A DNA stretch of 63,100 bases, filler included, from Hausera hauseri (lineage: Eukaryota): NCBI GenBank assembly GCA_046269625.1. It is 12 parts of 12 records of this genome, joined end to end, with 100 filler letters (N's around TTAATTAATTAA, not from the genome) between each part and the next. Parts side by side here need not be neighbours in the genome. Positions count along the whole stretch, not along the records: positions 37,591 to 41,816 come from JBJURY010689438.1; 11 more parts are not named here. One strand, 5' to 3'. The notes under the pieces are model-generated. The model saw nothing but the letters and a program-made list of their open reading frames with translations, was not told the DNA's origin and did not search any database. Position 1 is the first letter of the stretch. Each line of letters starts with the position of its first letter. This document shows positions 14,726 to 50,443 of this stretch, piece by piece. The translations under genes and the position numbers were made by a program.

Positions 14726-16530
14726 TCAGTTGAATAGGAATAATTCGATTGATATCAACTTTTCCAAATCTACTTTCCAATTTGAAGGGATGCTGTACTC
14801 TGTTCGCGCAAAATCAGGGTTGTCCGTCGAAAGTTTGTCTGGTTCAGGGGACTTTGCAATGATCGCCACTACACTGACAGACTGAGCACCACCGATTGGT
14901 GGCAATGACAAACAAGGAATATTTTCGAATAGCCCTCTGGCGATCATGTAGCTGATGTGCTCATTGACACAGAATATTTCCCGATCGATGAGTTCCCCAG
15001 AGACTGACCAAATTCCGAAACGACTCGCAGTCGACAATCGTCACAGTCCTGTCAAAGTGAGGTACAGTCAAGTCCAAAAACTGGACGAGCCAAATCTATA
15101 TAGATTGTTTCACAGTCTCTTGCAGACATTTGACAATGGAGGCAACCACGAATGGCCGATGAGTATCTGCACGTATCGGCGTCACCGCTCACTCACAGAG
15201 CAACGTCAACAGTAGCTGATGGTTGTCAATAACTGCCATCAAACCAACGGATAGATTCTCCATTGATTTAACTTCCTTGCAATTGTTCTAGTCGTTCATG
15301 TTGACCATTTCCAAAGCACGAATTAAATTATTCGTCGTTAGTTCAATTGAACAACTGAATGCCTCATGTTTCCATCGGTTTTCTACATGGAAACTTCGAT
15401 GCAGAATAAAATTTTCCAACTGAGACAGACTCTGACGAATAATTTTGTTTTCTGAACCAGGCGGCTGCGGTAGTGCGGTCAGTGAACAAGGTAAACTGTC
15501 TAATGGTAATCCGTTCAAATAATCTCCAGAGATTTTGACGTTATTCCATACGACAGTAGACGAACAGTAAAAACTTAGCGACGTTATCATCCCAGTGAGG
15601 AAGAGCAAGGCAGACCGATGCAGTGGGCAATTCATCAACTCCTGATAAAAATACGTTAGAATTTTCACTCGTTCATCGTCAATTAAACTTCCAAAAGCAT
15701 GGCATGCCTAATAAATTAATCGTCGAGTTAAAATTTCACTGTGCTTAAATCGATCACCAAAATCCAAAACGAAGGGCGAAAAGAATTTCATCCACTGTTC
15801 ACATTCGGCGCAATTTTCACATTTTGCCACAATCCTTTGTATAATTTCGTTGTGTTCCAACAAATCTTCATCGTACAGGCCTACCAAAAACGGCATATAA
15901 TTTTCAAATTCTGATATCATTACTTCATAATCATGATCAAAGGAATTATTCGATAGTTTATCAGCAATAAAATCGAATTTATCTGAAAGAATTTTCGATA
16001 AAGTGCCAACCCATTCCATGGAACTGTCGACATTCGGTCGCGTTCGTTTTTTACAGCTTTCTGAATTTGAACATTCATCGTATGCACTTTGATGTACCAT
16101 ATTGTACGAGATATCGGTACACGATTGCAATAGATTTGCTACAGGACGTCTTCCTTCTTATGAAAATATGGGAATACCGACTGCATAAAGTCATAATTTT
16201 CCGAATTTAATGTTTTCGAAACGAAGTCAATATCAAAATCCCTTGCCGATTCGTATTCATCAGAAACTGGTTTGGAATAACTAAACCTTTCGAGAACGTT
16301 GAATTCCGCTAAAAGTCAATAGTTCTGGAGACATTGTTGATGATTTGTTAGATATGTCAGTGAACTTTTGATCAGAAAGGCACACATCTTTAAGTCGTTT
16401 TGTGCATCGGTTTCTCTCGGACCGGCAGATATTTTAGCATGCCATATTCTGCATCTGATTTGCAATGCTCTTCTGGAATCTTATATTAAGACTGAAATTA
16501 TCCCCGGTACAAAAACGAGAAAATAATCCA
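14726..16530 (-). pseudogene. MED12: Mediator subunit 12 N-terminal half, disrupted
   Basis: IPIF(H)KKEDV, VPISRTIWYIK, MEWVGTLSKIL, CPLHRS..TVVWN..PLDSLPC..LPQPPG, VENRW, LLCE*AVTPIR (LCEWAV motif), ELIDREIF..MIARG; several stops and frameshifts; no introns evident; 5' boundary approximate. Confidence 0.85.
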
Positions 16531-17529
16531 TAATATGTTGAAGTAATTATTAACAAGCATTTCCACAAGGACAAACTGGCTTTCATTTCAAAATTTTCAA
16601 CGATTGCTGCACAACGAAATAAGCAAAATGCAGTTTTGTTATCAATAAACTACAATCCCCAAAAACCTGATACTTTAATTCTTTTGCAATATTTAGCAAA
16701 CACATCCATATTAAAATTTTATTTGAAGTGTTTTCAATAAATCCACTGATGTATTATGAACTTCGACTTCATTTGCATTGCAAATCCCACTTCTGACACC
16801 AATTTTGTGTGGATCCGGATAATTTACATGAAACATACAATGCATATAACGCTGCATAAATTTTTGTATTTAAAATAAACTAATCAATTCTATCAATTTT
16901 CCTTTTTGTAACAGAAGACAATTAAAACATGATCCGTAATCATAAACACAGTGGTACAACGTCAGGTAATCGAATTACAACCAAAAACACACACACACAT
17001 ACATAAAATACATCCCAACTTTTCATCGATGAATAATTACATTGACGTACTTTCAATTTCCAGAGTTAACTTTGGTATATATATGTACGTGTTGGTGATT
17101 CATCACTTGACTAGACTAGATGTACTAGTCTAGNNNNNNNNNNNNNNNNNNNNNNNNNNNNNNNNNNNNNNNNNNNNTTAATTAATTAANNNNNNNNNNN
17201 NNNNNNNNNNNNNNNNNNNNNNNNNNNNNNNNNGGAAGATCAAGGAGAACAAAATAATTCTTGCTGCTTCCTGCTAGACCTCCAACACCCAAGCTGAAAT
17301 CCTTAGCTTGAGATAACACACCTCCTCTCCTTTTCTTTTCTCCATCTTCTTATCTTCTGTCCCCTCTCCACCCCAAAATTGTTGGGTCAGTGCAGAAACA
17401 TGAAAATTTGATGAAATAAATGTTTTAAATATAAATATTTTTGCACTCCAAATAAAAGAATGATTTGGATCATGCTTGCCTGTTTAATGTTTCTTTGACC
17501 TTTATATTTTTTATATATTTTTTTTTTAG

Positions 17530-18935
17530 AAAGAAGTGATACATGTGAACTTGTGGAGAAAATGGCACGCAGCAATGACCCACAAGAAATCTCATCCCTG
17601 ATGGTGACCGCTTTATCCACCGCCAGCTCCTCCTTTGAGCAGCAGAAGCTCCTTGTTGAATTGACCAAGAAAGTTGAAGAAAGAAAACTTCAGTTAGCAG
17701 AAGCAGATAGGCAAGCAGCAATATTTGTTGGAAGCAAGAGAAGTGAATATGATAAGTTTGAGTTAATAGCACCTGGTCATGAAATTACCAGTGGTTTTCA
17801 AGATGTGGGAGCTGTATCTTCGGCCTCATTATCTTCCGATTCTGTTTCAGCATCTTCTGTAGTTTCTAGCCAGGAAGTTTTTGCCACAACAGCAACTAAT
17901 ATAAAGGAGGTGGAGAATGTTCCAGAAGAGCGTATATTGACATCATCTGTGTTCAGTGATGCTGGTTCTAGTCAATCCTCAAGCACATTGCCAGGCATAT
18001 CAGCTGAGCATTCCAACAATAACAAACAATTGCCACTTGATACATCTCTGTCACCTACAGTGTTGCCAACCTATCCTACATCACCCACACCAGGGCAATC
18101 ATGTACAGAATCAAAAGATACTTGTGGTGTCAAATTTTCTTTCACAAAATCTCGAACAAAAACTCTCAGTACCTCCACAGCTGAATTCTTTTCTTCTAGA
18201 ACTAGAGAGTTGAAACCCAGATTGCCTTCGCTGCATAAGGACATATCCCAGCAGTCTCTAATATCCAGTATCTCCAAGGTTCTCGATCCTGGAAAATCTC
18301 AGAAAACCGAAAGTGTACCAGATGCTCTGAAAGCTCTTATGAATGATGTCATGGGTAATAGTCAGTTTTCCTCTTTGGAAAGCAGACGGAAGAAGCTTTT
18401 GAAGAAAGAATCAGAGAAGGTGGGTAAAGAGACAGCTAAAGAACAGAGTACCACTGAGGAGCAGCTGATGAATGAACAAGCCGAGGCACAGAAAAGACTT
18501 GATGATGAAGATGAAGCAAGGAGAATCTTGGATAATCTCCAAAAGCAGAAATCATCTGCTGGCAGTGCCATAGCCAGGACTAGCGGTACTGAAACCAAAT
18601 CTGATGCGGATGACGTGAAACTGTCACAGACTGGCCCCCCACCATCTATTGATGAACTGTTAGACAGACTGAAGAAAGGGGGCTTCAAGTTTAAACAGAC
18701 AGGTGGAACTTCAGCTTCAGCCACTGAGCAAAGTCCTGTGATTTCCACAAATAATCAGACTTCTGTTTCTAGTCATTCATTGTTTTCTACCACTTCTTCA
18801 GAACTTGCAATGTCTTCAGTAACATCTTTAGCTACAGCACCCAGCCTTACCAGTTCCATGACAGCACAGACATCATCTCAGTTGGTACCACTGCCTGCAG
18901 CGGCAGCAAATATCAGAAATCCACCAGTCGACTGA
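17530..18935 (+). CDS. large exon or ORF of an unknown Ser/Thr-rich protein with charged helical segments
   Basis: 460 uninterrupted codons, preceded by a poly-T tract + AG acceptor near 17529; no family recognised. Confidence 0.55.
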
Positions 18936-18973
18936 ATACACCGTTCAGCAACAGTCGATCGTCATCTCTTCAT

Positions 18974-21780
18974 TTGTTAATCACGAATCATGGACTGGAC
19001 ATTGCCGATGACGTGTCGATACATCATCGACGGTTGGCCAATAAAATCCGTCTGATGTTACATCAGAAATTCTACGTGTTACCTCAGGTCAATGCCAGCA
19101 CCTTTGTCGTGTGTATCGATAATTTATCACGGTACCAAGTGGACATTGGACCACAGTCATGCAGTTGCTGCGTTGGTGGGTCATTTCCGTGCGTTCATTT
19201 GCTGTTCGTCATGTGTCGGGTGTTGCGGGTTCATGAGAGTGATCCACTATTGATGGCGGATAAAATGAATCACATTGAGGTCGAAGAGTTACTCCAGAGA
19301 TTCAGTAAATGAAGAAAAAAATTGAGGAACACATCAATCCAACACGAAACAAACACCGACTATGGACAATACTCGTAATTCGAATGAAACGTCAACAAGT
19401 CACAAAACCTCACATAATGATGCTCAACAGATGTTATTGCACTCAACCGATGCGATTACCTGTAGCATATGTCTACAAAAACTGAGTACAGCTGAGATGC
19501 TCGTTTATTGTTCGAGTTGTAGTAACGATTTCCACAAGAATTGTATACTTATCTGGATGAAAGAATGTCGAAAACTGGGCGAATTCACTTGCCCATTGTG
19601 CCGAAAACAGTGGACACTTGAAGACCTCAGTGCCGACATTGATAGTCCCACTATGGAAGAAACGTCAATCAACGAGTCGGATTTGTTTTTACCTCGTTCA
19701 CAGTCAGTCTTTGTGGCAAATAGACATATCGATAATTCTCATGTAAATAATATGGCTTCATCCACATCAGATTTGACGGCTAACTTTCATTTTAACATGG
19801 GTGCTTCCAGACAAAGCGAACATGATTCATATAATCATAAACCGATTGGTTATTGTTTCTCACCATAGGTGACTGAAATGCTGTCTTCGGAATTGAGCTA
19901 CAAGAGAGAGGCAGGACTGCGACAAGTTGCCAAAAAAAGTGCATATCGTCTTGTCTGCTGGATCGGCATATTCCAAAAGCAAGCACAATTAATCAATTAC
20001 TATCAATATTGTTAGCTCATTGGGCGGTCACACAACGGGTGTCATGTTAAAAGAAGCATTTCGTGTAATTGCCCAATTGCTCGATGACGTCTGTTACAAT
20101 CTGCTCGTTGGAGCATTGAGAGTCTTTCGAGAGATTCTCGGTTTTCTGGTCTGCACAGTTGAAAGCGATGTTGAATGAATGAGTAAAATGACCAGCCCCG
20201 TTTTGTGTCAGTTATTACGAATTTGCGGCGATTTTGCCCAGAAGAAAAAGGCCCAAATGAGCCTGTAGGCGTTGTTTGAATTGGCAAAAGGGTAGAAGGG
20301 TGGTATTGCATTGGACCGGGAATTAAAATCAAACATTCTTCCAGTAACGGGTCCTCATCGTCTGGCACGATTCGTTCTGAGTGACAGTCATCGATTCAAA
20401 GCCGCCCATTGTTACGGTCGTCTGTCATTATTGGAACGATTGCTGGACAAATTTGATTTAACTCAAGACATTTTGAGAAAAACTCTGGAATTCGTCACGA
20501 ATCAACTTTTACTGATGAATTGATCGGTTTTGCTGGCGAATTCGTTTGGTTCGGATAAATTTGATATTCTCGAAACAACCGATGTGGATACGGGTCTGTC
20601 CAGTTCGGATATTAAACTGTTATCGGGGAGTCGACTGCAGAAATTGGAAAAGGTGGTATTTCTGAACTCAGCGAAGGTGACGATGGGAAAATTAAATTTC
20701 AGCGGTTGGTCTACAGAAGAAATTCATGCCGAACTCTACAAAGATTTAAACAAACTACCTCAGCATTTGAAGGAAAAATTCGTGGTAAAATTGAAAATGC
20801 CCCACAAAGAGCCGGAAGGAGATTTAGATAAACAGATCTCAATTCAAGTTGGAAAGGAAAGAGACAAAAGCAGTCCATTGGCTGCATCATCATTAGGCAA
20901 CATTAGTAAAACTTCCCGATTGTCGAAAAGGTGTTCCCAAGTGAAACCTATCGGTGAAGCAAAAAAACCGGCAGTCTGCAGACTGTGAGCAGTGTGAATT
21001 CATTAAAAATTAAAAATGGCAATTTGAACCAAACAATTCGAAGTGCCAGCAGTGGATCGTGTCGCATATCGCCATACATTCGAATCACTCCGGAACCCGC
21101 ATATGATGCGGTGCCGGTGTCGGAAAGTGATGATGAAATAAGCCGAGAAACCGCATTCGTTTCCGAATTGGCTATTCCCAATTCCATTTACGGTCATCAG
21201 TTCGGTTTGCGAAATTCGGAACCTGAGGAGCAGGATGAAGAGAAAATATATAAATTGACAAATAAAGTACTTAAAACAGATGTCACCGTTCATTCCAAAG
21301 CAACCAATGTTGATTTGGGTGAAATAGAATTACAGGCGCCTCCTGGACTCGGTGTATTTTCATCGGAGTATCGTCTGGGTTACGAATGGTGTCAAGGACC
21401 TCTGTTGGGTACTGGTGCATTTAGTAAATGTTATCAAGGAAGGGATGTGAGAACTGGTCTCCTGATGGCTGTCAAACAAATCTCCATAAGTCATACATGT
21501 TTTGATAAAAATGAAGAGGTGATCAAAGCTGTTAAAACCGAAGTTCAACTGATGACTACTCTTCACCATCCGAATGTTTTGCCACTCGTTGGTTCAGTAT
21601 TTTCACCAAATGATAATACAATTAGTATGTTTGTACGTTGGATGCCAGGGGGTAGTGTGGCTTCTTTGCTCAATCAATATGGGGCATTCCTTGAACCAGT
21701 TACATTGGCTTATGCACTGCAGACTGCTCGTGGTTTGGCTTATATACACTCTAATCGTATTCTCCATCGGGATTTGAAAG
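18974..21780 (+). pseudogene. MAP3K1: MAP kinase kinase kinase 1 (MEKK1): SWIM, RING/PHD, kinase N-lobe; disrupted
   Basis: SWIM (VDIGPQSCSC..CVHLLFVMCRVLRV), RING (CSIC..CSSCSNDFHKNCILIW..CPLCRKQW), kinase (GPLLGTGAFSKCYQGRDVRTGLLMAVKQ..WMPGGSVASLL..HRDLKG followed by a GT donor at 21781). Stops and frameshifts in the N-terminal half. Confidence 0.88.
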
Positions 21781-23643
21781 GTAATTATTTCGTCAATTGA
21801 ACATTTATTAATAATATGGGTAAATTGAACTTTGATTGACAATGGGGGATAAATTGAAGAATGTGATCCATAATGGAGATGGATTGAACATTTATTCGTT
21901 ATGGGGTAATTTGAACATGATTCTCACATAAAGTTGAAGTCAACAAATGAAAAATTACCGTTTCTTAAAATGGCTTGAGGACAGAAACTTTCATCGAAAG
22001 AAAAGACCCATTAGAGTCATACTATATTGAAGGAGGTTTTTCGCAATGTTCCAAACAATCCAATGATTTATGAGAGGACAAAGGGAGAAAAAAAATTATT
22101 CGCGTGGTTAACAAAGGATCAGCAGCACTGAAATTAAGTGTGTATTACACTTCAATGCAAACAACGAAGGCCAAGTAAGTTCAACTTATGATTTCTCTGA
22201 ATGAACCTCCTTCGGTGTAGTATACCTCTATTTGGCCTTTACTTCTTTCTGACATTTATAGGCACGTGAAATTCCATTTTTTATTTGTTGACTTCAATAG
22301 AAAGTTAACATTGATTAGAAATCCTACCAACAACATGTGAATACCCGATTACGTAATCACATATGTTATTTATGAATCGTAAAACAATTTTCACAACATT
22401 TCACAATAGTAATTTTTTTGTCCAACCAATGAATCACACTCTACTTATAATATCCGACTAGATAAAACTCAAACAAATAAATTANNNNNNNNNNNNNNNN
22501 NNNNNNNNNNNNNNNNNNNNNNNNNNNNTTAATTAATTAANNNNNNNNNNNNNNNNNNNNNNNNNNNNNNNNNNNNNNNNNNNNAGATTTATTTTATAAA
22601 AATTTAAATCAGGTTGGGTAACTACAACTAAAGAAGTGAGCGTGGAAGATATAGCGACATTTTCTAAGACAGAACGTTTGTAGCGATAAGATAAGGCGTG
22701 AGGTCGAATAAGTACAGTCATTTCTCCGGCATTTGTCTTTATTTTATTAAACGGTAGAGGGTTCACAAGAGGTGTCGTGACACTTGATTGCTGGTCGCCG
22801 TCATATTCAATGACATTTTTAAGTTGAACATATGTTCTGGGCCCTTGATGAGTTAAGGTTTGACGCTTTCTGAATTCTTTCGTACTAATGTAAATTGCAA
22901 ATCAGAGATTCTACCTCATAAGGTATCACAACAAACTCGGAGACGTCTATCAGTCAACTGGTATTTTGTTGGTATCTTTTGTTTCTTTTCTACATCTGTA
23001 AGTTTTACACTTATTACTCTGTTCTCTTCCAGCTCTATCATTGTTCTAATTTCGATACAACTTCGTCCACTTTTAAATCCTATCGGCATAACAGTGAGTT
23101 GAGTTATTATTATTTTGTTTAATTTGGTTGCATTCATTGTTCATCTATTAGGTACATGTATGATACCTCGGCACTTGGTATATTGCCATTGTTAGCGATT
23201 CGTATGTCTCTTGATCAGAGTATAGTGTATGAAATAATTGCCAGAGTCATCTACTATACACTCCGTTGTGTTCCTCCAATCAGTAAGACCGCAATCATTC
23301 TTTTGTTGTTTCGGGCTTCGTTCATGATCATGCTCGTGGATCGCTTGAATTTCTATCATATGCTGGTTGGGCAGCCTTTCAAATGTCATAAATCTTATAC
23401 ATTTTTGGTCTTTCATTGTATAGGTTATCGCATGATAAATAGTTTCCATGAGGCTACTTTCTAACAATTCGTTTGAAGGGAATGTTCTTATCCATGGATC
23501 AAGCGCTTTTGTCGTTTGAGCTAGTAAGCCTGGTATCCCTATAAGAACCAATAGACAGAGGTATCTGAATACTTCGTAATTTAGAGTTTTATTACTTCTC
23601 TTTTTATAGTCGATGGCCCTTACAAATTTCTGTTCGTCGTTTC

Positions 23644-24752
23644 TTAATTCGCTCTCCTTAGGAGCAGATTTATACCTGTTGACATATATTTTATTCTAAT
23701 GTTATTTTTCTTTAAACATATGTTAGGTAAATCAACTTTTTCTACTTCGTACGGTCCCTTATAAGGTCTATTCAGCTTGGATGTCTTGCCTTTCATATTT
23801 AATGGTGTATACAACATCATTTTATCTCGAACTTTAATTTTGGGTTGTTTAATTTTCTCGTTGTAGTGTTTCTTGTAGGTCAATTTATACTCTTTCTCAT
23901 TGTCCTTCACTATCTTATATGCTAGTTGTAAGCGTTGTTTCATTAGTTGTTTGTATTCTTCTACTTCCATCAAATGAGAAGTGGATCTTACATTAAAATC
24001 AAGATGGATGGGTAACCTAGCATCTGTCAAAAACATCAAATAGAACGGTGTTTCTTTCGTAGCTTCATGCACTGATGTTCGATTTACAAATACACTGGCG
24101 TTGATGTATTCATCCCAGTCATCTTGTCTAGTATTAACAACTGTTTGTAGTTTACTTTTCACGTCTCCGATATACCTTTCGACCATGCCATTATTTTCTA
24201 GATGTCCTGGAGTTGATCGCAGTTTTAATATTCGCATTATATCGCAAATGGCTTGCATTACGTTTCCGGTCAAATTCGAGGCTTGGTCTGTCAGCAGGAT
24301 CCTTGGAGCTCCATAATTGAATACTATATTCTGTACAAATTGTTTGGCAATCGTGTCCGCTTTTATATCTGGTATGGGAATTGCTACAACCCATTGAGTA
24401 AAATAGTCTATAAAGACTAAGGTGTATTTATTTCCGTTTTTTGTTAGTGGTAGCGGCCCTGTTATATCCATAGCAGTGAATTCAAACGGAGCTGGTGGAT
24501 TCTCCCAAACTTTAAGGGAGCTTTGAATTTTGATCCGGTATTTTTGCGTGTGGCACAAAGTTTGCAACTATCGCACCATTCTTGAACGTCTTTGGTCGTA
24601 GTCGGCCAGAAATATTTCCTTTTCAATTTATTTATACTTTTTCGGGCTGATTGACGTTCGCCAAGAAGTCCATAATGATACTGAGTCAATAGTACGGTCC
24701 TATTCCTTTTAGGTATTACCAATGCTGGTCCGTCTTGGTGTATGTAGTACAA
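23644..24752 (-). pseudogene. Gypsy integrase
   Basis: YFWP..C..C zinc-finger remnant, D..D..E core, GPY motif. Confidence 0.92.
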
Positions 24753-27261
24753 AATCCTGCCTTTTCTTCGAAGGCGTCGCTGAATCGGGCCAAGTGACGG
24801 GCTAATTCCTTACCTTCTGGTATAATTTTACTCTGTATATAGCTTCTAATTAATTTTATTTCAACATCTTGTTGATTCTCCTTTATCTTTGCTGCGGACC
24901 CATCCATACTCCATGTAGCTGCAACAACTTCTTTCCTTTCTTTCCTCTGTCCCGTCATCCTGGACAGATAATCGTGTTCCGTATGAAATTGCATATCGTG
25001 TTCCGGGTTTGTATTGAAAATTTATTGTGTAAGGTTGCAATTTGAGAGCCCATTGTATCAAGCGGCTATTTGGATTTTTGTGTTGCTTTAATCACTGCAA
25101 ATGTCGATGATCTGTACATATTAGCAATGACCTGTTCTCGCTAATGTATGGGGAAAATACCTCTAAGGCAAATATTATGGCCAATAATTCCTTTTCGATG
25201 ACAGCGTATTTCTTTCGATGTTTGTTTAATTTTCGCAATGCATAAGCTACTGGGTGTTCTTTCCCATCTTCGCCTTTTCGCGATAGTACTGCGGCAAATC
25301 CGTAATCGCTTGCGTCTGTCGCTAATATGCAGGGTTTAGTCATATCTGGATAGATCAAAATTGGCGCGCTTAATAATTTTTATTTTAAGCTTTTGAATTC
25401 TTTTTGACAATCAGCGGTCCATAGCAATTTCCATAATTCTTCACGCAGCAACTCGTAGAGTGTCTTAGCTATTTAGCTGAAGTCTTTTATGAATCTTCTA
25501 TAATAATTTGCAAATTTTAGAAATCGGCGTAATTCCCTCACCGTGATCGGTTTCGGAAAATCTTTGATTTTACCTATTAACTTGTCCTGCGGTTTTACTC
25601 CGTGTCTATTGACTCGGCGTCCGAGGAAATCAACTTCTGCCTGTGCAAAGGAGCATTTCTTCGGGTTTATCTTAAGACCCATTATTTCACATCTGTCAAA
25701 GAGATCCTGCAAATCCTTTAAATGCTGATGGAAGTCTGATAATGCTATAATCACAATGTCGATGTACACTACAGCGTGTGGTGCGTCCAACAGAAGTAAT
25801 TCCCTTCCTCGTTGAAATGTGTGCGGTCCATTCTTTAATCCGAATAGCATTCTATCAAATTCCCATAATCCTTCGCTTATCGAGAAGGCCGTTTTTGATT
25901 TGTCCTCTTCTTTTACTTCCACCTGCCCTTTTGTAAACCGTGCAGTTTATCCAATATCTCGTCGATTCTCGGTAGCGGATACGTATCCTTCTCCGTTTTC
26001 TTATTTAATGATCTGTAATCTATGCAGAACCTCATAGCTCCGCCCTTCTTTTTAACTATTACCACTGGTGCTGTCCATGGGGAGCAGCTAGGTCGAATTA
26101 TCTTGTTCTCCCTTATTTCTTTTATGATTTTGCGGGCCTCCTGCTTTTTGTCGTAGGCCAGTCGATACGGCCGTTTCTTTAGGGGTTTTTCCTGTCCCTT
26201 TTTTAATTTAATGGCACGCTATATCACTTTTATTGTTCCTAAATCATAGTCATTTTGTGCGAATCTGATATTATTTTTCTCCAGCAACTGAATTAACATT
26301 CCTTTCTTCTCCGTATTCAATACTTTATTATCTTGCAATTTTTCTTCCCAGTTAATGCTAACATTTTTAACTCGATCTTTATTTGTTTCTGTTTTTAACT
26401 TTTCCGTCATCATCTTTTCAATTTAGTCTACGTCTGCAATTACCGAATTAATTTTCTCTTTTGGTATTTCCTCAATCATCGTTATTTATTCTAATCAAGT
26501 ATTTCTTCTTAGTTTCTTTTCTTTATTCTCCGTGTTGCAGATTCTTAGATGAATCATTCCATTTCTTACCTTGTCTACATGTGATGCGACATAAATGTCG
26601 TATTTTTCCATTATTTTCAGAAAAGGTTTGAAATACACGTGTGTTATTTGTACGTCACCTTCTATTCTCCCAGGTATTACTATCTTAGAAAGAGGAGGAA
26701 TAGTTACATCTTTCGTTAGAGAGACCGATCCTTCGTGCTGACATGTACACCTTTTAAGCTGGCCTGTCTTCATATCAAGATACGCATTTTCTAGTTGGTT
26801 CAATACATAACATCCAATCAGTATTTTGTTGGTAAGGTTCTTCGCTACTCAAATGGTGTGGTTTATTGTTTGGTTACCGATCTTGATCTGTGCATTTAGA
26901 AACTTTTTTATCTCTTCCTCCATGCCGAATGCTCCCACATTAATTAGCGTCGTGCTTGGTTTTCTTAACTTTCTTTTTAATTCTTTGAGCAACTGACTTT
27001 CTCTCATTATTGTAGTCGTAGATCTCGTGTCGATTAACGCCGTTAACGGGTATCCATTTACTTCGATGTGTATCTCTGGTCTCGAGGGTAACTGTGGTTC
27101 ATTTTTGTCACTTGTCTTACACGTAAATTCGTGAATGAGTGGTGTAGAATTTTTTTCGTAACCTCGTCTCAACAATAATATCTGATACATAGATACATTC
27201 CTCCATGTTTCATATGTCGCGGGGCTAAGGGACTTATTACCGGTTGCTCATTATAAATCTG

Positions 27262-27850
27262 TTAGTGGTATTCATTGGCAGGATCCAATTGTGGTAAATC
27301 GGTTACCAGTTTTCGTATGTATTTTGATTTCCGTGGCTTTAGAGAAATCCGTTTAAGTCTCATTAGGTATCTACTGCTTTTAGACTTATCTGAGCCGTCA
27401 TCATCATCATCGTCTTTGTTGTTTAATGTACTGTATGGAGAATTCCTTTCAGCTTCGTCATTTCTTTTCCTCAATATTTTTTGTTTCCATTTTGCGTCAT
27501 GATTAGCTAAGAAACAACTTGCTACTGCAGGAATTACAGCTATCAAAATTTTCCAGGAACATCCCACTTCTGCGTAAATTCCATATGCTTTACCAATGGC
27601 AGTAAATACGGTGCGTAAAGCGCTGATGATTAAATATATTGCCAAGAACCCCGAAGCCGCTTGTGCGAAGTATAGGAATATTCTCCACATTTTCTCCATC
27701 ACGTTCTTCGTGACCCTTAAATATTCCCACATTACTCTCCTCGTTAATTCCGTTATTATTATGTCTCTGCTGCGGGAATAGTAGCATACGCCGATAGTCT
27801 TCTAGATTTTGTTGGGAATAGATTCCTCCTTGGGAAATCCCAACGAGTGG
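27262..27850 (-). pseudogene. C-terminal part of a chuvirus-like (class III) envelope glycoprotein
   Basis: GGIYSQQNLEDYRRMLLFPQQR, then after a frameshift KMWRIFLYFAQAASGFLAIYLII..AYGIYAEVGCSWKILIAVIPAV (two hydrophobic segments) and a charged tail. Pattern recalled from chuvirus-type glycoproteins, not searched. Confidence 0.6.
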
Positions 27851-30762: not shown

Positions 30763-32450
30763 TTAGTATGTTGTGAATAATGCATCATAGAAGTGATTCA
30801 TGTTCAGTACTTTGTTTTTGATTTTGTTAACTTGATCCAAAACTGTACCGATATTTTTCTTTAAGATTTTCTGATTGTTATCGTTAAAGGCTTGTGTGAC
30901 GCTCAACGTATTGACACCGAGTTCCTGTAAACGTCTAATGACATTTGGGGTCAATACGTCAGCCGGCAATATAGTTACATTGTCACTAACTAGTATCATA
31001 TTGCTAATAAACGGTAACAGGGCTTTAATATTGTTTTCAATAGGCACAGGAGCGATGTTCTCACCTCCAGCAGTGATGATGAGTTCTCTGGTTTTGCCGG
31101 TTGCGAACAGATGTTCATTGTTTTCAACTTTTCCATGACAACCAGAATGAAACCATCCAGCAGCATTAAGAGTTTACTAATTTCGCAATTCTGTTTCATC
31201 CGGATTGTTTATCATTAATTCGGAGCCTATCATAAGAATCCCAATGGTACAGATTTTTATCTTGCCGAATAACCCGAGTGTTGCTGGTCCGCTACATTCG
31301 GACGTATCAAAAACCTGTTGAATGTGAGTATCAAAGTTCAGGTAGACGTCTAATGTATCTTTCATCGCTGGTGCTGCCGTTGACGAAACGAGTGCACAAT
31401 CATACGAACCGAGAGTCGTTCAAGCTTTATTAAACACCAAATATTTAGACACGATGTACGACATACACGTCGGTTTGCCAGATATTTTTGTCAAGCTATT
31501 TTTATATTCAACTTTCGTAGCCCAAAGAGTAGGGTATTTTTTGGTTTCGTTGACGTAGAACCAATTTCATGAATCTTTTCAAACTCTCGGGGCACTCCGA
31601 TAAAAGCTGTTGGTCGAATCACTTTCAACGTTTGTCCAAGAGTACCCTTGAGTACATCAAATTCGATGAAATAAATAGTTGTACCAAAAACAACAGTGCT
31701 CAAAACGTGAATTGTTAGCAGCAACATGACTCAACGGTAAGTAAGGTATCACTGTTTGATGGAACGGCTCGAAACCGATTTTCAAAATCGCAGGTCTGGG
31801 GCAAAAGGTGCATTATCATGACTCGAAATAACGCCTTTCGGAGTACCGGTGGTACAGCTCGTGTGAATGATAGGGGCGCAATAATCTATATTTAGGTTAT
31901 TGCTCCTGGTTCGCATTTTTTCGGTTCCTCCTAATGAGCCTAACTCCATAAATTCCTCCCAAGAAGAGATTATAACTAGACAAGACTTTCTTACTTTTCC
32001 GTAACCGACTCAGTGGGTTGAATTATGGCTTTGATTTTTGTCTCTGAAAGTATATGGAAATTTTTTTTTAATTGAACATCGTTTTCTACCACCACAATTT
32101 GACAGTTATAATAGTTGATAATGAATTTATACGTGTCAGCGTTGTTTGTCGTATAGATGTCACAAACCACGCCACCAGAGAAAATGACCCCAAGTTCCGT
32201 CGGACACCATGCAACATGACTGGGTCCAATTATTCCGACACCACTGCGGTGAGATAAACCAAACTTTATGAAAATTCTGGCTGCTTTATCAGTCAATTTT
32301 AAATATTTTTTAATCTTTATTGTTCCATCGGATGTTTTATTGGATCACTTTTGTAACGTAATACCGGAAAATCGTGATGCTTGTGGTATAGTTTCTCGTG
32401 GAATACGTTCGAAAATTCCTTTACGAACATAAAATATAACAGTTTGCTCT
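30763..32450 (-). pseudogene. ACSBG: long-chain fatty acyl-CoA ligase, bubblegum type, intronless and disrupted
   Basis: IYTTN..CQIVVVEN, HTSCTTGTPKGV.SSHDN (AMP-binding), YLPLSHVAA, LKGTLGQTL..RPTAFIGVPR, SECSGP, ELIITAGGENIAPVPIE; many frameshifts. Confidence 0.88.
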
Positions 32451-37490: not shown

Positions 37491-38265
37491 NNNNNNNNNN
37501 NNNNNNNNNNNNNNNNNNNNNNNNNNNNNNNNNNTTAATTAATTAANNNNNNNNNNNNNNNNNNNNNNNNNNNNNNNNNNNNNNNNNNNNTTAATGTTTA
37601 TGATACAATTTTTTTTATTTCACAGCCAATTATTGAAAAAAGGTCGCGACACGTTCATTAGTTTTATTAGCACAAAAGAAACGGTAAATGTAATACATAC
37701 ATGTACGCACTAGTAAGTCATTGTGGAATAATAGATTATTTGTAGCCACAAATTTCAAGTTTAGTTAATAGTCACATTTGTTAGTTGCTTTCAATTCTTC
37801 CATTAATTTCACCCCTCGTTCAGCGATGATATTTTCCCGCTGGACACCGATTATGGAATCTTCAAAACTCCAGTGCGTCTGAAAGCCCTTTAATGCGGGG
37901 ACACTTAAGAAGTTCAATTGCTGTTGATAAACGTGTTGTTATTTCTTCTTTGTTCATTTATTCCGAGAACCACGCTGCTTGCATGAAACCAGACCCCCCT
38001 TCTGAATGAGAATCGGAGTGGTTCGTGGATGAGTCATAGGGTTGAAAAAATGATACACATATACACGTTTAATAGGGTGTAGATGGAAGGCACACAAGCA
38101 CTTTAGTGATACACACAATCAGGCGTACTGTATGTATTTGGAGTGTTTACAAAATTTGAATTTTGCGCATGCAAAAAAATTGTTTAAATTTCGCGGTAAA
38201 AAATTTTGTTTAAATTTTGGTACATTGTTATATATTTGTAGATTTTTAATTTACGTGCGAAAAAA

Positions 38266-38529
38266 ATGTCAGAAGCAAAAACTCATGTTAATGCTTTTTC
38301 TGCAACAGATCATTTCAATACTGTTGAAAAGTTGTGTGTAGTATTGAAGAACATACAAAAGGAAAGAATGAAGTCAAAGTTTAAATGTGTACTATGTGAC
38401 GAAAATAAAGTGGATACTGTTTTCCTAATGTGTGATCATCTAGTTGTATGTCAGATATGTTCAAAGTGAAGTCAATGTCCAGTATATACATGTAACATTA
38501 ATGAAATTATACGTATTTACTACGAATAA
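38266..38529 (+). pseudogene. small IAP-type RING (C3HC4) protein with one internal stop
   Basis: CVLC-x11-CDHLVVCQICSK*SQCPV..INEIIRIY; no BIR domain. Confidence 0.8.
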
Positions 38530-38596
38530 AAAAAACCCAATTTGTCAAATAAAAGGTGAACAAAACATGAACATTAAATATTTATTAACACAACAT

Positions 38597-39153
38597 TTAC
38601 AACTTGTAATTCTTTGTAATTTCAGTCATTGTCGAAATAACCTGTTTTTCTTTTCTGAGCAAATCAGACAATTGTTGAGTCAGATATTGTAGGTGTTTTT
38701 TTCTTCACTTTGTAAGTTGGGCATGTTTAATGGCTTTTCTGGTGGAAACAATTCAAGTTTGATTGTTAAGGTATCGCTGGACAATTGAACCCAATTTTCT
38801 TAGTTGATAAAATTTCGTAAAACCACTTCTAATGTTGTGTTCACATTCTGGTTTCATGTAACATACTGATCTGCAATTTGCTTGTATTTTGACTGAGCAT
38901 ATGACATCACCTTGTTCATCCAGTAGAGACATTTGAATCAATATACGAAAAGGCCATTCCAACGTTTCATCATCTTCACCTTTCACCAAAGCAAAAATAC
39001 CGATAAATGTGTATATCTGCCAACACCGTCACCATCCGGATAGACTCTAATACAGAATGTGTACCCACTGATACTGAACGTATCACTGGTAATGATCACA
39101 TTGTTTTTGCTTTTTTCGTTGAAGTTTGTTAATTTCCAAATGTAGGTATTCAT
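38597..39153 (-). pseudogene. stand-alone TRAF-type MATH protein, copy 1
   Basis: MNTYIWKLTNF..GYTFCIRVYPDGDGVGRYTHLSVF / ALVKGEDDETLEWPF..NIRSGFTKF; two frameshifts; intronless. Confidence 0.88.
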
Positions 39154-39404
39154 AATGAATGAAAACAGGATATATGTACATGCTTATATACAAGATTGTA
39201 GCCAATCAGAGAAGAGGAAAAATTACAAGATTGTAGACAAACAGAGAAGAGTAAATATTTTACTAGTGTGTAGTATAGTTACTGGTGCATTTGTAATATT
39301 TGTTCTTTAATAAATGTTTTATGTGTCAACCTTATATGTTCTCAATCACTATATATTATGAATAAGACATAAAGAATAACACGAAATATTTATTTATACA
39401 ATAT

Positions 39405-39958
39405 TTACAAATTCTTTGCAATTTCAGCCATAGCAGAAATAATCTGTTTTTCTTTTCTGAGCAAATCCGACAATTCTCGAGTCAGATATTGGAGTTTTTT
39501 GTTTTCTTCATTTTGTAAGTTGGGCTTGTATAATGGTTTATCCAGTGAAAACAATTCAAATTTGATTAATAAGGTATCGTTGAATATAATGGAATCCAAT
39601 TTTCTTAGTGGATAAAATTTTGGAAAACCACTTGCGATGTTGATTTCACTTTCGGGTTTTATGTAACAAACGGATCTTCTATCTGTTTTTATTTTGTCTG
39701 AACATATGACATCACCTTTTTCATCCAGTAGAGACATTTGTATTATTCCACGAAAAGACTATTCCAACGTTTCATCATCTTCACCCTTCACCAAAGCAAA
39801 AATACCGATAAATGCGTATATCTGCCAACACCGTCACCATCCGGATAGATTCTAATAAAGAATTGGTACCCACTGATACTGAACGTATCACTGGTAATGA
39901 TCACACTGTCTTTGCTTTTTTCTTTAAAGTTTGTTCATTTACAAATGTAGGTATTCAT
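39405..39958 (-). pseudogene. stand-alone TRAF-type MATH protein, copy 2
   Basis: Paralogue of copy 1; GYQFFIRIYPDGDGVG..NIASGFPKF; one frameshift and a TGG>TAG stop; C-terminal helical extension. Confidence 0.88.
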
Positions 39959-39959
39959 A

Positions 39960-40020
39960 ATTAATGAAAACTGGATATGCTTATATACAAGATTGTAGCT
40001 AATCAGAGAAGAGGGCAAAT
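39960..40020 (-). promoter_or_regulatory. TATA-containing promoter cassette repeated ahead of both MATH genes
   Basis: Minus strand CTCTTCTCTGATT(G/A)GCTACAATCTTGTATATAAGCAT...TTTTCATT..ATG here and at 39155-39250. Confidence 0.55.
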
Positions 40021-41816
40021 TTATAAGCTGTAATGCTCGTAGGTTACACTACTATTCCTTTGTGTCCAATGACGTTTATCATCAAATGGGTCCCGAGCTT
40101 TTTTCTTTGACTGTATAGTCATCAACTGATGATTCTTTTTTCCAATTCTCTCCTGGTTCACCATTGTCCCACATCCAGTTTTATAGGCATTTATGTAGTT
40201 CTCGTACTGTAAATCTGTCTGTCCCAAATTTACATCTTTACATTTCATAATTGATTTTGACTGTGTTTTTAGGGCATAAGACTTTGATCTTAGGAAAATA
40301 CTATTTTTGTACTTTACTGACCTCTTACCCTCATCTTTGAATTTTCCTATCACTGCTGCGAAACGAGAAGAGTAAAGGGGGTCATTAACATCATAATTGG
40401 CAGTATCAATCTGCTCATTAGCTATTATCGCTGGTAATAGTTGGTTACGCAAATGGACACCACGGCACTTGAGAAAAAATCTATCCGTGTCACCACCAAT
40501 TACATTAATTTTGAAACTAAACTGTTGCCTGTAATTCTCCAACTCGATACAATTCAACTCATACATTTTTAACTTTGATAGATCAAGTACAGCTTGACAG
40601 ATGTATTTGGGTCTGTCTAAAGTAACTATGTCCTTATCGAGGAGAACAGCAACAAGGTCATCGGCTATAATGATACTTTCCTTAAACTGTGCCTTACTTG
40701 TTTAAGTAACAAGTTTTTTGGCATTATTGCACAGTCTTAAATTTGACCTTTTCAAAAAATTCTCAACGGTCTTACCATATACACTATTATTCTTTAACTT
40801 TAAAAAGTCCTTCTCAAAAGTATTATTTGCTGCCGTTTGTTTAGAAGTGTTTAAGTCTATATAATCCTTAAAGACATAGCCTTGGTCAAATTCAACAGCC
40901 CGATGAACTTTATCAACAACAGCACCTAATTCAATATACAACTGCAAAAGCCTATGATTGATCACATACTTTAACTTAGGCTCATGTGCCAGCAACAATT
41001 TTTAACTGACGAACCAGGAGCACATTGGTTTATGGGAGTTAAAGGCAACTGATTCAGTTTGTCATGTTTATCAGTCGGAATGCTCAAATCTACCGAAAAC
41101 ACTAAGCCCCGTTTTTCCTTAACATAGTCAATGTAAGGTAATTGTTCAATCAAACGGCTTAATCTGTCCTCATCATATATCCATACCAAATTCACAAATG
41201 GCAGAGGTTAAGATAAAACCCAGTTGTATAAATTATTTACATCTATATACAAGAGACTTGTGCTTTCATCAGTTGTTAATCTACGTTTATTTACAAAAGT
41301 CATACCTCTGCGAATACCAGATTGAGAGAACTGATGCATTTCAGGATCCTGCATTAACTCTATTTTACAGTGACTAGATTTCAGAGCTGTTTCCCAACTT
41401 AAATCTGGAAATGAGACAAAGTTAGTAGCCTCTAAGCCATCCTGAAACTTAACTTCTTTTCCGAACCGTTCGAAAACATCAAAAAACCGGTATGCATCTA
41501 GTTTCATATATACTAATATGTAATCTTAAAGACTTTTACAACTGTATTTGGTCCAAGCAAGTTGAGCATCTCGATAATACTCATCAGTAACATTATCCCA
41601 TTTTGGTGGTAAAGCAGAAATGGACTGTAAGTCATTGAAATATTTTGCAGCAGTGTATGAAAAACTCCTTTTCCCTTAATCATGTCCGAAGGAAAGTCCG
41701 ATTCTGTAAATGGGTAGGTATCTAAATTTAAAGCCAAAGTCTTCAATGACGCTGGTAAAAATTGCATTAAGTTAATAAAGCGAATACTAACACATTTTTT
41801 ATATGAACACTGGATA
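40021..41816 (-). pseudogene. Polinton/adintovirus protein-primed DNA polymerase B, C-terminal part
   Basis: KGKGVF, YIDVNNLY, KLKNNSVYGKTVEN, GDTD, IGKFKDE, LRSKSYA, DDKR. Confidence 0.93.
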
Positions 41817-43193: not shown

Positions 43194-46100
43194 TTACAGT
43201 AACACATGCCCCTGAGGTTGTGTGCTTATTCCATCACCCAGGATCTGCCTTTTGTCGTCCATACAATCTAGGCTCTTCTGTATGCAAAAATCGCAATCCG
43301 CAAAAGTGATCTTCTTGGCTAAGGTAGCCCTTTGAACGCCCTTAGCTCTTTTTGATCTGATCACATACATCAACTGCATAGATTTTGGACCTAAGAGCTA
43401 CAAATCTCGAGATGATTGCCCCATTCACCTCATCTTTGAATTTTCCAAGGACCTTCTTGTTGGTAATTGAATAGTTGGGATGCTCCTTCGGATAGCCAGA
43501 CGTATGCGTATGCTGTGTCAACTTAGCAAAGTCCTCATAAATGTCCTCAGTATGGATTCTGATAGATGAAACTCAGTATCCATGTACATCAGCTGTATGG
43601 ACTTGAACGTGGGTACCACAATGTAGTGGAATTTGTACATCAGGGTCTTTGACACGTCGAGGACTTGTTAAATTGCAAGGATGTTTTCAGCATATGGATG
43701 CTGACCAAGTTCTCCGCATATATGATACTGCTGTGGAAGTTGGGTTTTACAATGAGGTTCTTTGCCCGTTTCTACTCAGAGACCAGTTCGATATTAATCC
43801 TGTTGTGGATATTTACCATGATTTTGCCAAAAGCGCTATTGTTGTAAAGCTTGAACTGGTCCTTCTCAAAATCGTTCTTGGCATTTGTCCGCAGCTTCGT
43901 ATTAAGATCTATGTACGGCTGCAGCCAGTTGGACTGGCTGAACGGCAGGGCCCGATAGGATCTTAGTAATGTGGAGTCCATTTCTGACCGCTTACTGGAG
44001 ATTTATGTAGTGGACTACATACTTCGCCCTACTATCCAGATGGCAGAGCAGCTTTCTATGCTTTCCATGGGGCGGAGGCTTGCACTCAGGGAGGAAAGGC
44101 AGCTGTTGATGTCTTGCGTGGATAGAAGCCGGATATTCCATATCCACCTCCAGTATGTATTCCGTATCTCCAGTGGGATCTAGGTCCACTATAGGGATGT
44201 TTTCAAGATGCTTGACCCACTTGAAGTCATCATATGGCAATGTGGCGCTCATTGCCCATCCATGCAAGTTGTTGGCATCCAGGTATGATATATATATGAG
44301 GGTTCCTTGGACGGATCATACTGGGCCATATACTTGTTGGCCTCGCTATACCAGATAATGGCCTGGCATATTCCGTCTCTAATGCCTCTCTTGATCAAAA
44401 GGGTCATGTCGTAATTCTTAATGATCTGCAGCCTAATACCAGTATATCGCAGAATAACTGCCCAACTCATCCCTGGAGCCGTAAAGAAATGAGCTGGATC
44501 CAATGCATGGCTCTTCATTATAACATCCCTGAAGCTCTCAAAGACGTCCGTCAGAAGCAGCACGTCCGTCTTGAGGTATGTCGCTATATTCCATTATTGT
44601 TCGGCATTGAAATGCATGCCAGAAGTTCTGGGCATGCAGGTAGTCTTCATCACTGATATCGCAATCTGAGAGGATATTGTAAAAGTCCTTCTTGGCAGGC
44701 ATGAGGTCTAATCCAGTGTTTCCCATGAAGTTATGTAATCATAGGGAAACACGTCTTTCCTTTTGACTAGGTCAAATGTAGTGGAAGAATCGCTTCGTCT
44801 CCTTGAGTTCTCCTGCAGGGAGGTCCTTTACTAAACTGTCAAGTGAAGACGACATGAAATGGAAGCTGTCCACGAAGCGAATCCTGATTTTCCCAACATG
44901 CTTTGAAAAGGTGATATACTTCTCCTCACTATTAGGGATCACATCAATGTTTCCTTCAATGTTTCCCAGTTCCCGAACAGTGAAGTGGGAATAATAACCA
45001 CTGAGGTTGTGAAACACTACAGGCACATGTACATGTTTTGCAGCGTAGGTTGCAGTTCTTACATGTCGCGCCCCGATATGTGCCTGTAAATGGCAATGAT
45101 CACTGACTTTATGATTCTCCTTAGTGAATGATTTGGAACACAAGTAACATTCTGTTGTCTTGCGCCATTCTTCTTGCTTCTTCGACATGCTCATGTCGTC
45201 CTTATGCTGCTGCAACATATCGCCAAGCCTATGAGCCATATCTTCAAGTCGCTTCATGAAATGTGCTGCTGCGTCTGGACCTCTGAATAGTTATCGTTCA
45301 CTGTCCAGTCCTTTGACATACATGCAATATGATGAAAGTTCATGATATTGGTATGCCGTTGTGCTGCTATGTTGTGGACTGGAAGTGCATGTCTGAACTG
45401 GCCTGAGAATAGCTTCAAAGTGGCAACAGATGACGATTGGGACCTTGAGCTTCTTCTCGAACTCCTTGAATTCAATATAGTTCTCCTTGGGAAATTCTGG
45501 CCTTACACAATAATTGTTACAGCAGTACATCTTATGCTCTGCAAGCTTGTCCACTGCTGCACCACCACAGAAATGAGTCAAGCATTGCTTAGAGATCTCA
45601 ATTTTCACACGATGTTTCGTAATTTGAGATCTTACTAGACGTTCAAAATTCTTTATCCATACGTAATGTTTCTTTTCTCCATCGTCTAGTAGGAGCAGAT
45701 CCATATAATCTTCCAATTCATTATCATATATTTGCATGGGATAGAATTTATCTTCCTCATCCAATTCAAAGATATTTATGGACATATTGTTGATTCGACT
45801 AAACATCTTGATTTCATCTAAGGATGGAGGGAATGTGATACACTGGAAATCATAGTTGTGCTGCACATCCTTATATAGCCAAAGTCGTGAAGCAGTATGT
45901 TGATCTGGTACGAGTTTTGATATAATGGAATACATGAAACACTTGTTGTCGTTATTATGGACATTAATGCAAGCGTTTTCCTGCCGAATTCACTCTGGGA
46001 GCTGTATATAAAAACTTTGTTGCATTGTGGAGAATTGATGCACATGCACTTGAAGTTTCTTGATAGTTGCCCGAGTCCATCTGCTCTTCTTACTCTGGCT

Positions 46101-48788: not shown

Positions 48789-49790
48789 TCAATCTGCGAT
48801 GCAAATATTCAACTCGACGTAGTGTATCCGTGCCGCTTGACAAGATATTGTTTATTCGAACCTTTACCGCGTGAACGTAGAATTTCCTGAATATGATACA
48901 CATCCGGTTTTTCCGCTACGACTTCAGTTCATGTTCGTAAACCTTGCAACGTATTTCATTACCATTTTCATCTCCTAAAGCGTACATAACAGGTGTTTGT
49001 TTTGTGTTGGTTGCTGAAATTCGGAAAACCTCATCGCACCAGTTTTGATAGAAATTCTTAATGAATGGTGTCGTACTCAGNNNNNNNNNNCGTTTATTTG
49101 GTCGTAGCTGTGTTCGGTTTTGGTAAAGCAACATGTCCAAATCATCGATTACATCCACCGGCCGTAATCCATTGATGCCACGATGTGTCGAGTGATTGTA
49201 TGCATGAATAATATCAGATAGTACAACTATCCAGCGTTTATTACACGGCTTGGTAAAGTATTTGTTCAGTCGGCCGCGTAGGGTTTGATTAAATCGTTCA
49301 ACAAGAGCAGCTTTTTATTATGAAAACACAAAGTGGTGGTTTACACCGAACCGCTTCAAAACCAATGCAAAATGGGAGTTGTAAAATTCCTTACCCAAGT
49401 TTGCTTGTATGTGCTTCGGCAGCTATTGTTCAATTAATATGTGAACAGCGTCGGATATTTCCCTACCGTTTGGATTTGACTGCAATTGCACGTGCAAAAC
49501 CACTAAACACCTCAATACATGTCAGCACGTACCGATAGCCATCGTTGATGCTGGCGTACGGAATCATTTTTATTAGATCAATTTGCCATACATTATTTAC
49601 GCCGGCAGCACGGTATGCACGAGTTGGAAACCGCCTTCTTATTGATTTGTTTAGGCTGTATGCTAACTGTTTCTCTAGCCAACGTTGGATATGTTTCCGA
49701 GTCTCTTTGACAGTATTTGCCAGTTTGTCGACGCCAGTATACCCGACGGGATGACGCGGTTCGAACCACACTTCGCCCATCGTTGTTGTC
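48788..49790 (-). pseudogene. Polinton retroviral-like integrase with chromodomain-like C-terminus
   Basis: PVGYTGVDKL, WQIDL, YRYVLTCIEVFS, TSKLGKEF, KAALVERFNQTL, YNHSTHRGI, NWCDEVFRI, QYLVKRHGY. Confidence 0.9.
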
Positions 49791-49924
49791 GATGGTGTCG
49801 GTTTTGCTTGCATTACAACAATTTGAGCGAAACATAAATGAAAGATTCGGTAAACTAGGACAGGAAGATGAAAACCATGCACCCATATCGCTAAATTATC
49901 ATATACTTACCGCTATTGTTTATA

Positions 49925-50443
49925 CTAAATTGTTTCACCAATGAGTCCACCAAGTAATGACGTGACAATCGGTAGAATTGCACCAAGGAATCCGCCTTCT
50001 TGCTTTTGCATAATCTCTCGCTTCAGTTGTTTACTATGAGCGATGCCAAGGCCAATGAGTCGTTTTCGATACTTTAGTAAATTCCGTTTTCCACTACCAA
50101 TGTCAACGTGAACCACAACGATATTGTACAAAATTTCCATTAAATCATCTATTACAAATTGTGGGAATGATAGCAGCATGTTTCGCTTATGTCTCGTAGT
50201 TGCTTTGAGCAAAGCAATAAAGTAAGGCTGATTACGTTTAAATCGCATTTTTGGACGTATTGATGCTGATGAGACGTAGTTGTTTATAACTGTTGTCACT
50301 GTGACCGTAATTTGCGTCTAGTTGTTGTTTGACGAAGTACAGAATTGATTAATCGCTTGACTGATACACGTTTCTTGCCGCCGGACACACGCTTGGTAGG
50401 TTTACGTTTAACAATCGTTTTTCGGAAATTCTTCATTTTTATC
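49925..50443 (-). pseudogene. basic core / protein X-like gene of Polinton-adintovirus
   Basis: K/R-rich N-terminus, EILYNIV, and C-terminal QEGGFLGAILPIVTSLLGGLI amphipathic helix. Confidence 0.7.

Follow-up and report, generated by a model that had tools for sequence, protein, structure and literature searches.

Adintoviruses have been described as carrying accessory anti-apoptotic genes such as Bcl2 and IAP (inhibitor of apoptosis) homologues, and the legend to Fig. 5 of the same paper lists, for a MELD virus that has an adintovirus-like DNA polymerase B, or PolB, a gene predicted to resemble TRAF3 in structure (Starrett et al. 2021, PMC8502044). We analyzed a stretch of 63,100 nucleotides from the Hausera hauseri assembly GCA_046269625.1, referred to here as the window, in which contig JBJURY010689438.1 carries a broken Polinton-type PolB, two genes for a stand-alone TRAF-type MATH domain and a gene for an IAP-type RING domain. 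We read this contig, with a probability of roughly 0.55, as the left end, now decayed, of one copy of a multicopy Polinton-type element with two kinds of cargo, namely a gene for a RING-less TRAF decoy captured from a planarian and a gene for a cIAP-like RING protein.

The locus resembles adintoviruses and Polintons in its pfam03175 PolB and its IAP-type accessory gene. It differs from these and from the MELD virus, whose TRAF3-like gene is named in that legend but not described in the text and belongs to the section on non-animal datasets, in that the gene is similar in sequence to TRAF2-like host proteins and encodes a C-terminal helix, while the IAP-type gene consists of the RING only. The giant Gypsy retrotransposons Burro/GYPSM1, from what is likely the same host group, also have MATH_TRAF_C, BIR and RING-type motifs, and MATH is a separate accessory open reading frame (ORF) in Burro of Dugesia tigrina (PMC6431247). 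Burro is a long terminal repeat (LTR) retroelement that mostly encodes one polyprotein, however, whereas here separate small genes are found in a DNA virus-like element. Another animal DNA virus, the megalocytivirus ISKNV, has a TRAF2-like gene of host origin, ORF111L (PMC3352826), but the 296-residue product of ORF111L keeps the usual order of RING, coiled coil and MATH and is pro-apoptotic; the stand-alone family lacks the RING and has its helix after MATH. Nematode Mavericks contain host-derived genes (wasp, krma) beside the terminal repeat (bioRxiv 10.1101/2022.07.12.499685), but these encode proteases and kinases, some with introns, and neither a TRAF nor a RING protein. The nearest named single domains are those of the planarian proteins Dugesia japonica TRAF2-like A and Dendrocoelum lacteum TRAF-4, which share with the family a Cys at the position of TRAF2 S455. 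Unlike the family, these planarian proteins are 356-448 residues long, have zinc fingers (and RING) ahead of MATH and extend beyond it by 0-2 residues. A host signalling gene as Polinton cargo is already known, whereas we found no precedent in an animal Polinton for the rearranged TRAF architecture: the literature yielded no description of a gene for MATH plus a C-terminal helix in such an element, although the figure maps of PMC8502044 may bear on this novelty, and term searches gave no match to TRAF or MATH in PMC11131425, in 10.64898/2026.10.13.758929 and in one supplement of PMC8502044.

Results

Gene order and type of element

The window is made up of short contigs of 4-7 kb each, separated by N44, a 12-base stop spacer and another N44, and contigs adjacent along it are not neighbours in the genome. 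The PolB/MATH/RING locus sits on a single contig (37591-41816) bounded by such spacers. Its layout was derived by six-frame translation with a coordinate check (Table 1). A previous reading of the DNA by itself (the sequence-only reading) had placed PolB, two MATH genes and RING in this order on one contig, and translation and Pfam bore out the coordinates. The stop codon of PolB is at 40021-40023 on the minus strand, and the ATG of MATH copy 1 (MATH1) follows 62 bp further on at 39958, the earlier estimate having been about 60 bp. MATH1 stops at 39405, MATH copy 2 (MATH2) runs from its ATG at 39153 to a stop at 38597, and the RING gene on the plus strand converges on it tail to tail across a gap of 67 bp, in line with the earlier estimate. 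The MATH genes are intronless as proposed, in that tblastn of the intact relatives described below shows no intron-sized gap. The contig carries a decayed (fossil) copy of the element that is unable to make any of the proteins. CCAAT-like and TATA-like words lie within about 50 bp of the ATG of both MATH copies (39154-39226 and 39959-40024, minus strand), and it is therefore likely that the MATH gene has its own promoter, which would overlap the end of PolB.

Table 1 Features of the PolB/MATH/RING contig, in window positions
Feature	Position	Strand	Basis
Left end, likely terminal inverted repeat, starts AGTGGT	38017..38235	+	depth rise and loose contig ends
cIAP-like RING gene without BIR, 87 codons, broken by one stop	38266..38529	+	Pfam PF13920, PDB matches
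MATH copy 2, stand-alone TRAF2/3/5-type MATH with C-terminal helix, 3 frameshifts	38597..39153	-	Pfam, translation
Spacer between the MATH copies, including the duplicated upstream region	39154..39404	-	repeat family D3
MATH copy 1, stand-alone MATH with C-terminal heptad helix, about 185 codons, 2 in-frame stops and 1 frameshift	39405..39958	-	Pfam, heptad test
PolB-MATH spacer, 62 bp, without a terminus	39959..40020	-	contig joint in 3/3 runs
PolB, broken, cut by the contig end	40021..41816	-	Pfam E 5.5e-6, relatives

The earlier assignment of PolB to the Polinton/adintovirus type was confirmed. Pfam DNA_pol_B_2 matched one of the three PolB pieces scanned, and PF03175 was present in all three of the relatives scanned. 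Nine longer relatives of this PolB were found, the best four being 43-56% identical. The locus thus has the protein-primed PolB (pfam03175) of Polinton/Maverick elements (adintovirus Alpha), interrupted by at least two frameshifts and three stops. Weak Pfam matches to BLYB and DnaG HBD were below the cut-off and were disregarded. A collection of viral contigs scanned with the MATH protein P0006, the MATH family alignment, a PolB piece and a PolB alignment yielded no relatives.

Copy number and the element boundary

Three public runs, X1, X2 and X3, contain parts of the window, with word shares of 0.36, 0.10 and 0.07, respectively. The run contigs aligned over PolB, MATH and RING numbered 18,396 in X1, 1,370 in X2 and 234 in X3, and most were less than 95% alike. 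PolB, both MATH genes and RING belong to one diverse repeat family that is multicopy and dispersed, as Polintons are. Across 38012-38059 the summed contig depth, which is not equivalent to copy number, rose from 36-152 to 4,451-111,314 in X1 and from 0 to 179-2,931 in X2. Sixteen X1 contigs had loose ends before 38017, with an agreement of 0.63, and loose ends in X2 were located before 38018/38019. Position 38017, 249 bp beyond the RING start, is thus a sharp repeat boundary with varied flanks, which we read as a probable Polinton-type end. The boundary sequence AGTGGT is an imperfect form, with five of six letters, of (AGT)2, which along with (AG)3 has been described as a Maverick end motif (PMC8097293). 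The terminal region has no second match within the whole window, the other element end and any target-site duplication lying outside the contig. A candidate 16-base terminus at 38105 was rejected, as it had no second match and the boundary came to lie at 38017 once depth was resolved more finely. Outside the terminus, the flank (37591-38016) is a low-copy repeat in X1, with a summed depth of 29-92, and is almost absent from X2 and X3.

The sequence-only reading had regarded the MATH and RING genes as element cargo, and a Polinton terminus at 39960-40020 had been named beforehand as the observation that would count against this. No such terminus is present. The depth does not break at 39960-40020, and the sole sharp boundary is the one past RING. 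A joint from 39218 to 40017, which connects the PolB end with a MATH upstream region, was found in one contig in each of the three runs, its shorter side being 53-58 letters. In X1, contigs extend from the terminal region into the start of RING (38193-38303), and one contig spans RING and the end of MATH2 (38404-38756). Since there is no break at 39960-40020, and given the joints and the bridge at 38404-38756, it is very likely that the cassette is cargo between PolB and the element end and not flanking host DNA.

A putative E2F-site-like word occurs at 38189-38196, within the terminal region and before the RING gene, and a similar word appears in the loose ends of other copies. Such a word could tie expression to cycling cells.

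The tandem MATH copies

MATH2 had been viewed as a tandem paralogue of MATH1, and the two copies were indeed found to result from a tandem duplication of about 805 bp that includes the upstream region, with 85.6% identity over 658 bp. One frameshift is common to both copies in the same homopolymer. This site is polymorphic among the run contigs, with about half of the X1 summed depth each way; assembly error as the sole cause of the breaks is unlikely, as about half of the X1 depth has the state seen in our contig. An X3 contig of 177 bases covers the spacer between the copies (39171-39342) with one difference, so the tandem arrangement was not created by the assembly of our contig. The 39218 to 40017 joint skips one MATH unit, as would be seen if an element copy had only one MATH gene or if its first upstream region resembled that of copy 2. 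Two weaker X1 joints skip the unit at the other side. Both forms exist: in some element copies PolB leads straight into one MATH upstream region, and others have the tandem spacer. The dN/dS ratio between MATH1 and MATH2 was 0.66 over 128 codons (bootstrap 95% interval 0.37-1.22), which is not distinguishable from neutral divergence. We regard the two genes as products of a duplication at the subfamily level, with no evident specialisation.

The stand-alone MATH protein

Pfam recognized MATH_2/TRAF-mep_MATH in all four MATH pieces. The best sequence matches in the PDB were TRAF5, TRAF2, TRAF3 and TRAF1 at E values of about 1e-21 to 1e-19, with TRAF6 far weaker at about 2e-4. A search with the C-terminal piece yielded two intact relatives among 47 candidates, a cluster look-up added one, and the fourth, P0016, came from an exhaustive search of 1.84 billion representatives. 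These four unnamed proteins (P0006, P0007, P0008 and P0016) are 170-189 residues long, begin at MATH strand 1 and are 54-99% identical to P0006. In three of them about 45 residues follow MATH; the tail of P0007 is shorter. A model of P0006 built from 68 sequences (pLDDT 92.3), which replaced a poor one of the family from four sequences (pLDDT 50.5), predicts a MATH beta-sandwich and one 43-residue helix at 140-182. Foldseek with this model placed TRAF3, TRAF1, TRAF5 and TRAF2 at the top (E 6e-14 to TRAF3). Among viral models it returned one unnamed entry first, followed by two iridovirus TRAFs at ranks 2 and 3. In each of the three tails tested, the final 32 residues follow a heptad pattern of common register, with scores that were reached by 281, 237 and 5 of 10,000 shuffles, the last being MATH1. 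A three-copy complex prediction in which the alignment went unused scored 0.02; it gave no answer and is not evidence.

These results substantiate the earlier description of the protein as a TRAF-C domain that lacks RING, zinc fingers and N-terminal coiled coil and has a helical extension C-terminal to MATH. When compared with TRAF1-6, the family has the TRAF1/2/3/5-type TRAF-C/MATH domain according to Pfam, PDB and Foldseek. The N-terminal TRAF-N is missing, since the four intact proteins and both contig copies start at strand 1. Also missing are the RING and zinc fingers of TRAF2-6, with Pfam detecting MATH alone in P0006, P0007 and P0016. By its domain content the protein would work like a TRAF-domain fragment, and it falls outside the TRAFs for want of TRAF-N and of RING and zinc fingers. 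Because the first and last strands of a MATH domain lie side by side in antiparallel pairing, a C-terminal helix would exit near the usual entry of TRAF-N. This points to a permuted TRAF domain in which the coiled coil has probably moved to the C-terminus. TRAF-N mediates trimerisation and holds the cIAP1/2 site of TRAF2 (PMC9406534).

The peptide groove was compared using numbering carried over from the PDB alignment, with a first residue number of the chain that we presume to be correct. All four intact members retain four of the eight groove residues of TRAF1/2/3/5 (R393, Y395, D399, F447, S453, S454, S455 and S467; PMC1334386) and have either R or K at the R393 position. A metagenome scan gave 15 loci with 30-38% identity, none of which matched any of seven Polinton/RING query pieces. 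All 15 have coding sequence upstream and 8-25 residues after MATH, as in ordinary TRAFs.

Origin of the MATH gene

The Cys at the TRAF2 S455 position was found in all four family rows and all five planarian-type rows (two named, from Dugesia japonica and Dendrocoelum lacteum, and three unnamed) but in none of the 59 other rows of alignment A2. It is also present in all three MATH sequences of the window. In a tree of 70 rows, the top-scoring of 138 domains, the family had an SH-aLRT support of 98 and fell within a set of 14 rows that included both named planarian rows (SH-aLRT 95). In a tree of 28 rows obtained with a careful search, from which two long rows were dropped, the family and the planarian-type rows were split from the 18 others at 100/97; the rows of the small trees were picked after the first tree was seen. 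The comparison with host TRAFs that had been called for thus produced the planarian grouping in the 70-row and 28-row trees but not in a quick tree of 30 rows that retained the two long ones. The stand-alone proteins form a single clade, and their nearest group is the TRAF2-like proteins of planarians. This grouping and the shared diagnostic Cys make it likely that the gene was captured from the expanded TRAF2-like genes of a triclad flatworm host. Atlas searches yielded generic MATH and kinase clusters but no host assignment from another gene. Schmidtea has 121 MATH domains, and planarians have more than 100 MATH transcripts (PMC6109357).

A third TRAF-type MATH fragment with the planarian-type Cys but no C-terminal tail occurs on a separate contig (28883-29344, plus strand). 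It lies outside the stand-alone family clade, and its contig contains no Polinton gene.

The RING gene

The RING was proposed to be of the IAP type, in agreement with its best PDB matches, cIAP2 and cIAP1 (E 8e-7 and 9e-7), which are followed by MYLIP and XIAP. Pfam zf-C3HC4_3 (PF13920) matched at E 5e-8. An extension of about 35 residues precedes the domain. Seven of the eight zinc ligands are present in this copy, Tyr occupying the eighth position, and a stop at 38467-38469 within the domain is absent from the bulk of run copies. In contrast to IAPs, the 87-codon gene has no BIR domain according to Pfam. A homologue search with it gave no relatives, intact or otherwise. Intact copies would be expected, by analogy, to have E3 activity.

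Other contigs in the window

Polinton-like pieces are present on separate contigs. A PolB N-terminal piece (2-468, plus strand) is 71% identical to P0161, and a second broken PolB (43370-46100, minus strand) is 24-46% identical to relatives of the cassette PolB family. A further region (48916-50317, minus strand), on a contig separate from that of the cassette, has an integrase fragment with a weak Pfam match to rve (49463-49906, E 0.0018). An ORF beside this fragment resembles what we take to be a Polinton core protein.

A minus-strand region at 23644-27801 contains Gypsy-like pol pieces preceded by an ORF that matches a Monjiviricetes-type fusion glycoprotein (PF24664, E 1.5e-11). The place of this env-like gene upstream of pol recalls the env position described for Burro (PMC6431247). 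A Med12 fragment (PF12145) is located at 15288-15707 (minus strand). A broken gene at 30763-32344 (minus strand) presumably resembles a long-chain acyl-CoA ligase. The long ORFs at 17499-21800 (plus strand), with RING (Pfam) and kinase domains, belong to a host gene on a separate contig; their domain order is one that we take to be MEKK1-like, MEKK1 being a kinase of the TRAF2 pathway. A strand-skewed simple repeat of about 6.7 kb at 51226-57914 (AT skew 0.83-0.88) yields long spurious ORFs.

Discussion

We propose that intact versions of this element encoded a TRAF decoy. The C-terminal helix would replace the lost N-terminal coiled coil and oligomerise the MATH domain, and the partly kept peptide groove would bind the tails of receptors or adaptors. 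With neither RING nor zinc fingers, such a protein would pass no ubiquitin signal and would compete with host TRAFs, while the RING gene would provide a separate accessory E3 on the same death or immune pathway. Dominant-negative TRAF2 mutants inhibit NF-kB (PMC9406534). This precedent and the start and layout shared by the four intact relatives count for the decoy, and by analogy it is likely that intact elements used the TRAF protein to jam host immune or cell-death signalling.

A number of observations weigh against this proposal. No gene is intact in this copy, and the contig stops inside PolB at 41816, such that genes for capsid, ATPase, protease and integrase are not on it. The four intact relatives are known from proteins alone, none of them placed in a Polinton, and P0007 lacks the heptad tail. 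The multicopy argument uses summed depth with the caveat given above, and depth dips to 37-48 at 38236-38283, so the link between terminus and RING rests on the contig itself and few run contigs. The family is on a long branch, the planarian grouping was unsupported in the 30-row tree, and the host assignment comes from the MATH data only. Since F447, S454 and S455 of the groove differ in the family, the ligand may not be the classical TRAF2 motif. Compared with most TRAFs, the family has 6-8 fewer residues in the loop joining strands 1 and 2, and this may alter assembly. Finally, the viral TRAF ORF111L of ISKNV promotes apoptosis (PMC3352826).

The two kinds of cargo might instead work together as a split TRAF ligase, in which the C-terminal helix of the MATH protein would pair with a helical N-terminus on the RING protein to form a two-part E3 that ubiquitinates and destroys TRAF-binding receptors or adaptors. 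The genes are adjacent, tail to tail and co-occurring in X1 contigs, together they represent both functional ends of a TRAF, and the N-terminal extension on one protein and the free heptad helix on the other would be available for pairing. The known link between TRAF2 and cIAP, however, needs TRAF-N (PMC9406534), which is absent from the MATH protein. The RING protein has no BIR, no intact relative of it was found by search, and, as IAP homologues are general in adintoviruses (PMC8502044), adjacency needs no partnership. We consider a split ligase unlikely, even if it is the strongest of the alternatives, and the split TRAF mimic put forward in the sequence-only reading gained no direct support. 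An oligomeric MATH protein could also be an active scaffold that clusters host adaptors and turns a survival or death pathway on, in the manner of ORF111L with TRADD and caspase 8. ORF111L does bind TRADD and induce apoptosis (PMC3352826), one of the leading fold matches is the TRAF2-TRADD complex 1f3v, and planarian TRAF-like proteins regulate cell survival (PMC7586133). Nevertheless, ORF111L retains RING, coiled coil and MATH in their normal order whereas the family is without the catalytic part, and this scaffold appears to us less probable again.

A still poorer prospect is that the MATH gene is a passenger, a host TRAF fragment that was caught near the element end and spread without serving the element. 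Every copy on the contig is broken, the dN/dS between them allows neutrality, the polymorphic shared frameshift implies that broken copies were amplified, and the many planarian MATH transcripts (PMC6109357) fit as well. Yet four ORFs down to 54% identity have the same start, three of them with the same tail register, and the new start codon, together with the N-terminal domains lost and the ordered helix gained, suggests that selection acted on a new protein. It is very improbable that MATH and RING are host or Burro-like LTR-retrotransposon sequence that a PolB fragment landed in or beside. Such an origin could draw on the MATH_TRAF_C, BIR and RING motifs of planarian Burro and its separate accessory ORF in one species (PMC6431247), as well as on the third MATH fragment of the window, whose contig has no Polinton gene. 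That fragment is outside the family clade, however, and the joints of PolB with the MATH upstream region in all three runs, the absence of a depth break at 39960-40020 and the sharp AGT boundary 249 bp past the RING start all argue for cargo of the element. The decoy remains our preferred reading.

A wider scenario, which we offer as speculation and think improbable, is that in flatworm Polintons a permuted TRAF recruits a cIAP-like RING protein by helix-helix pairing. This would be a virus-built two-gene ligase directed against the enlarged TRAF network of planarians, either in parallel with the MATH/BIR/RING cargo of Burro or exchanged with it, and mobile elements would have driven, and would partly form, the planarian MATH expansion.

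With this finding, a TRAF-derived gene whose architecture is rearranged joins the accessory genes known from animal Polintons. Because Burro carries similar cargo, it would mark TRAF signalling as a pathway targeted by flatworm mobile elements. Oligomerisation of a MATH domain through a helix at its C-terminus would also be interesting structurally. The element also provides a handle on the more than 100 MATH transcripts of planarians (PMC6109357), some of which may be element-borne, and the pathway itself may be under conflict.

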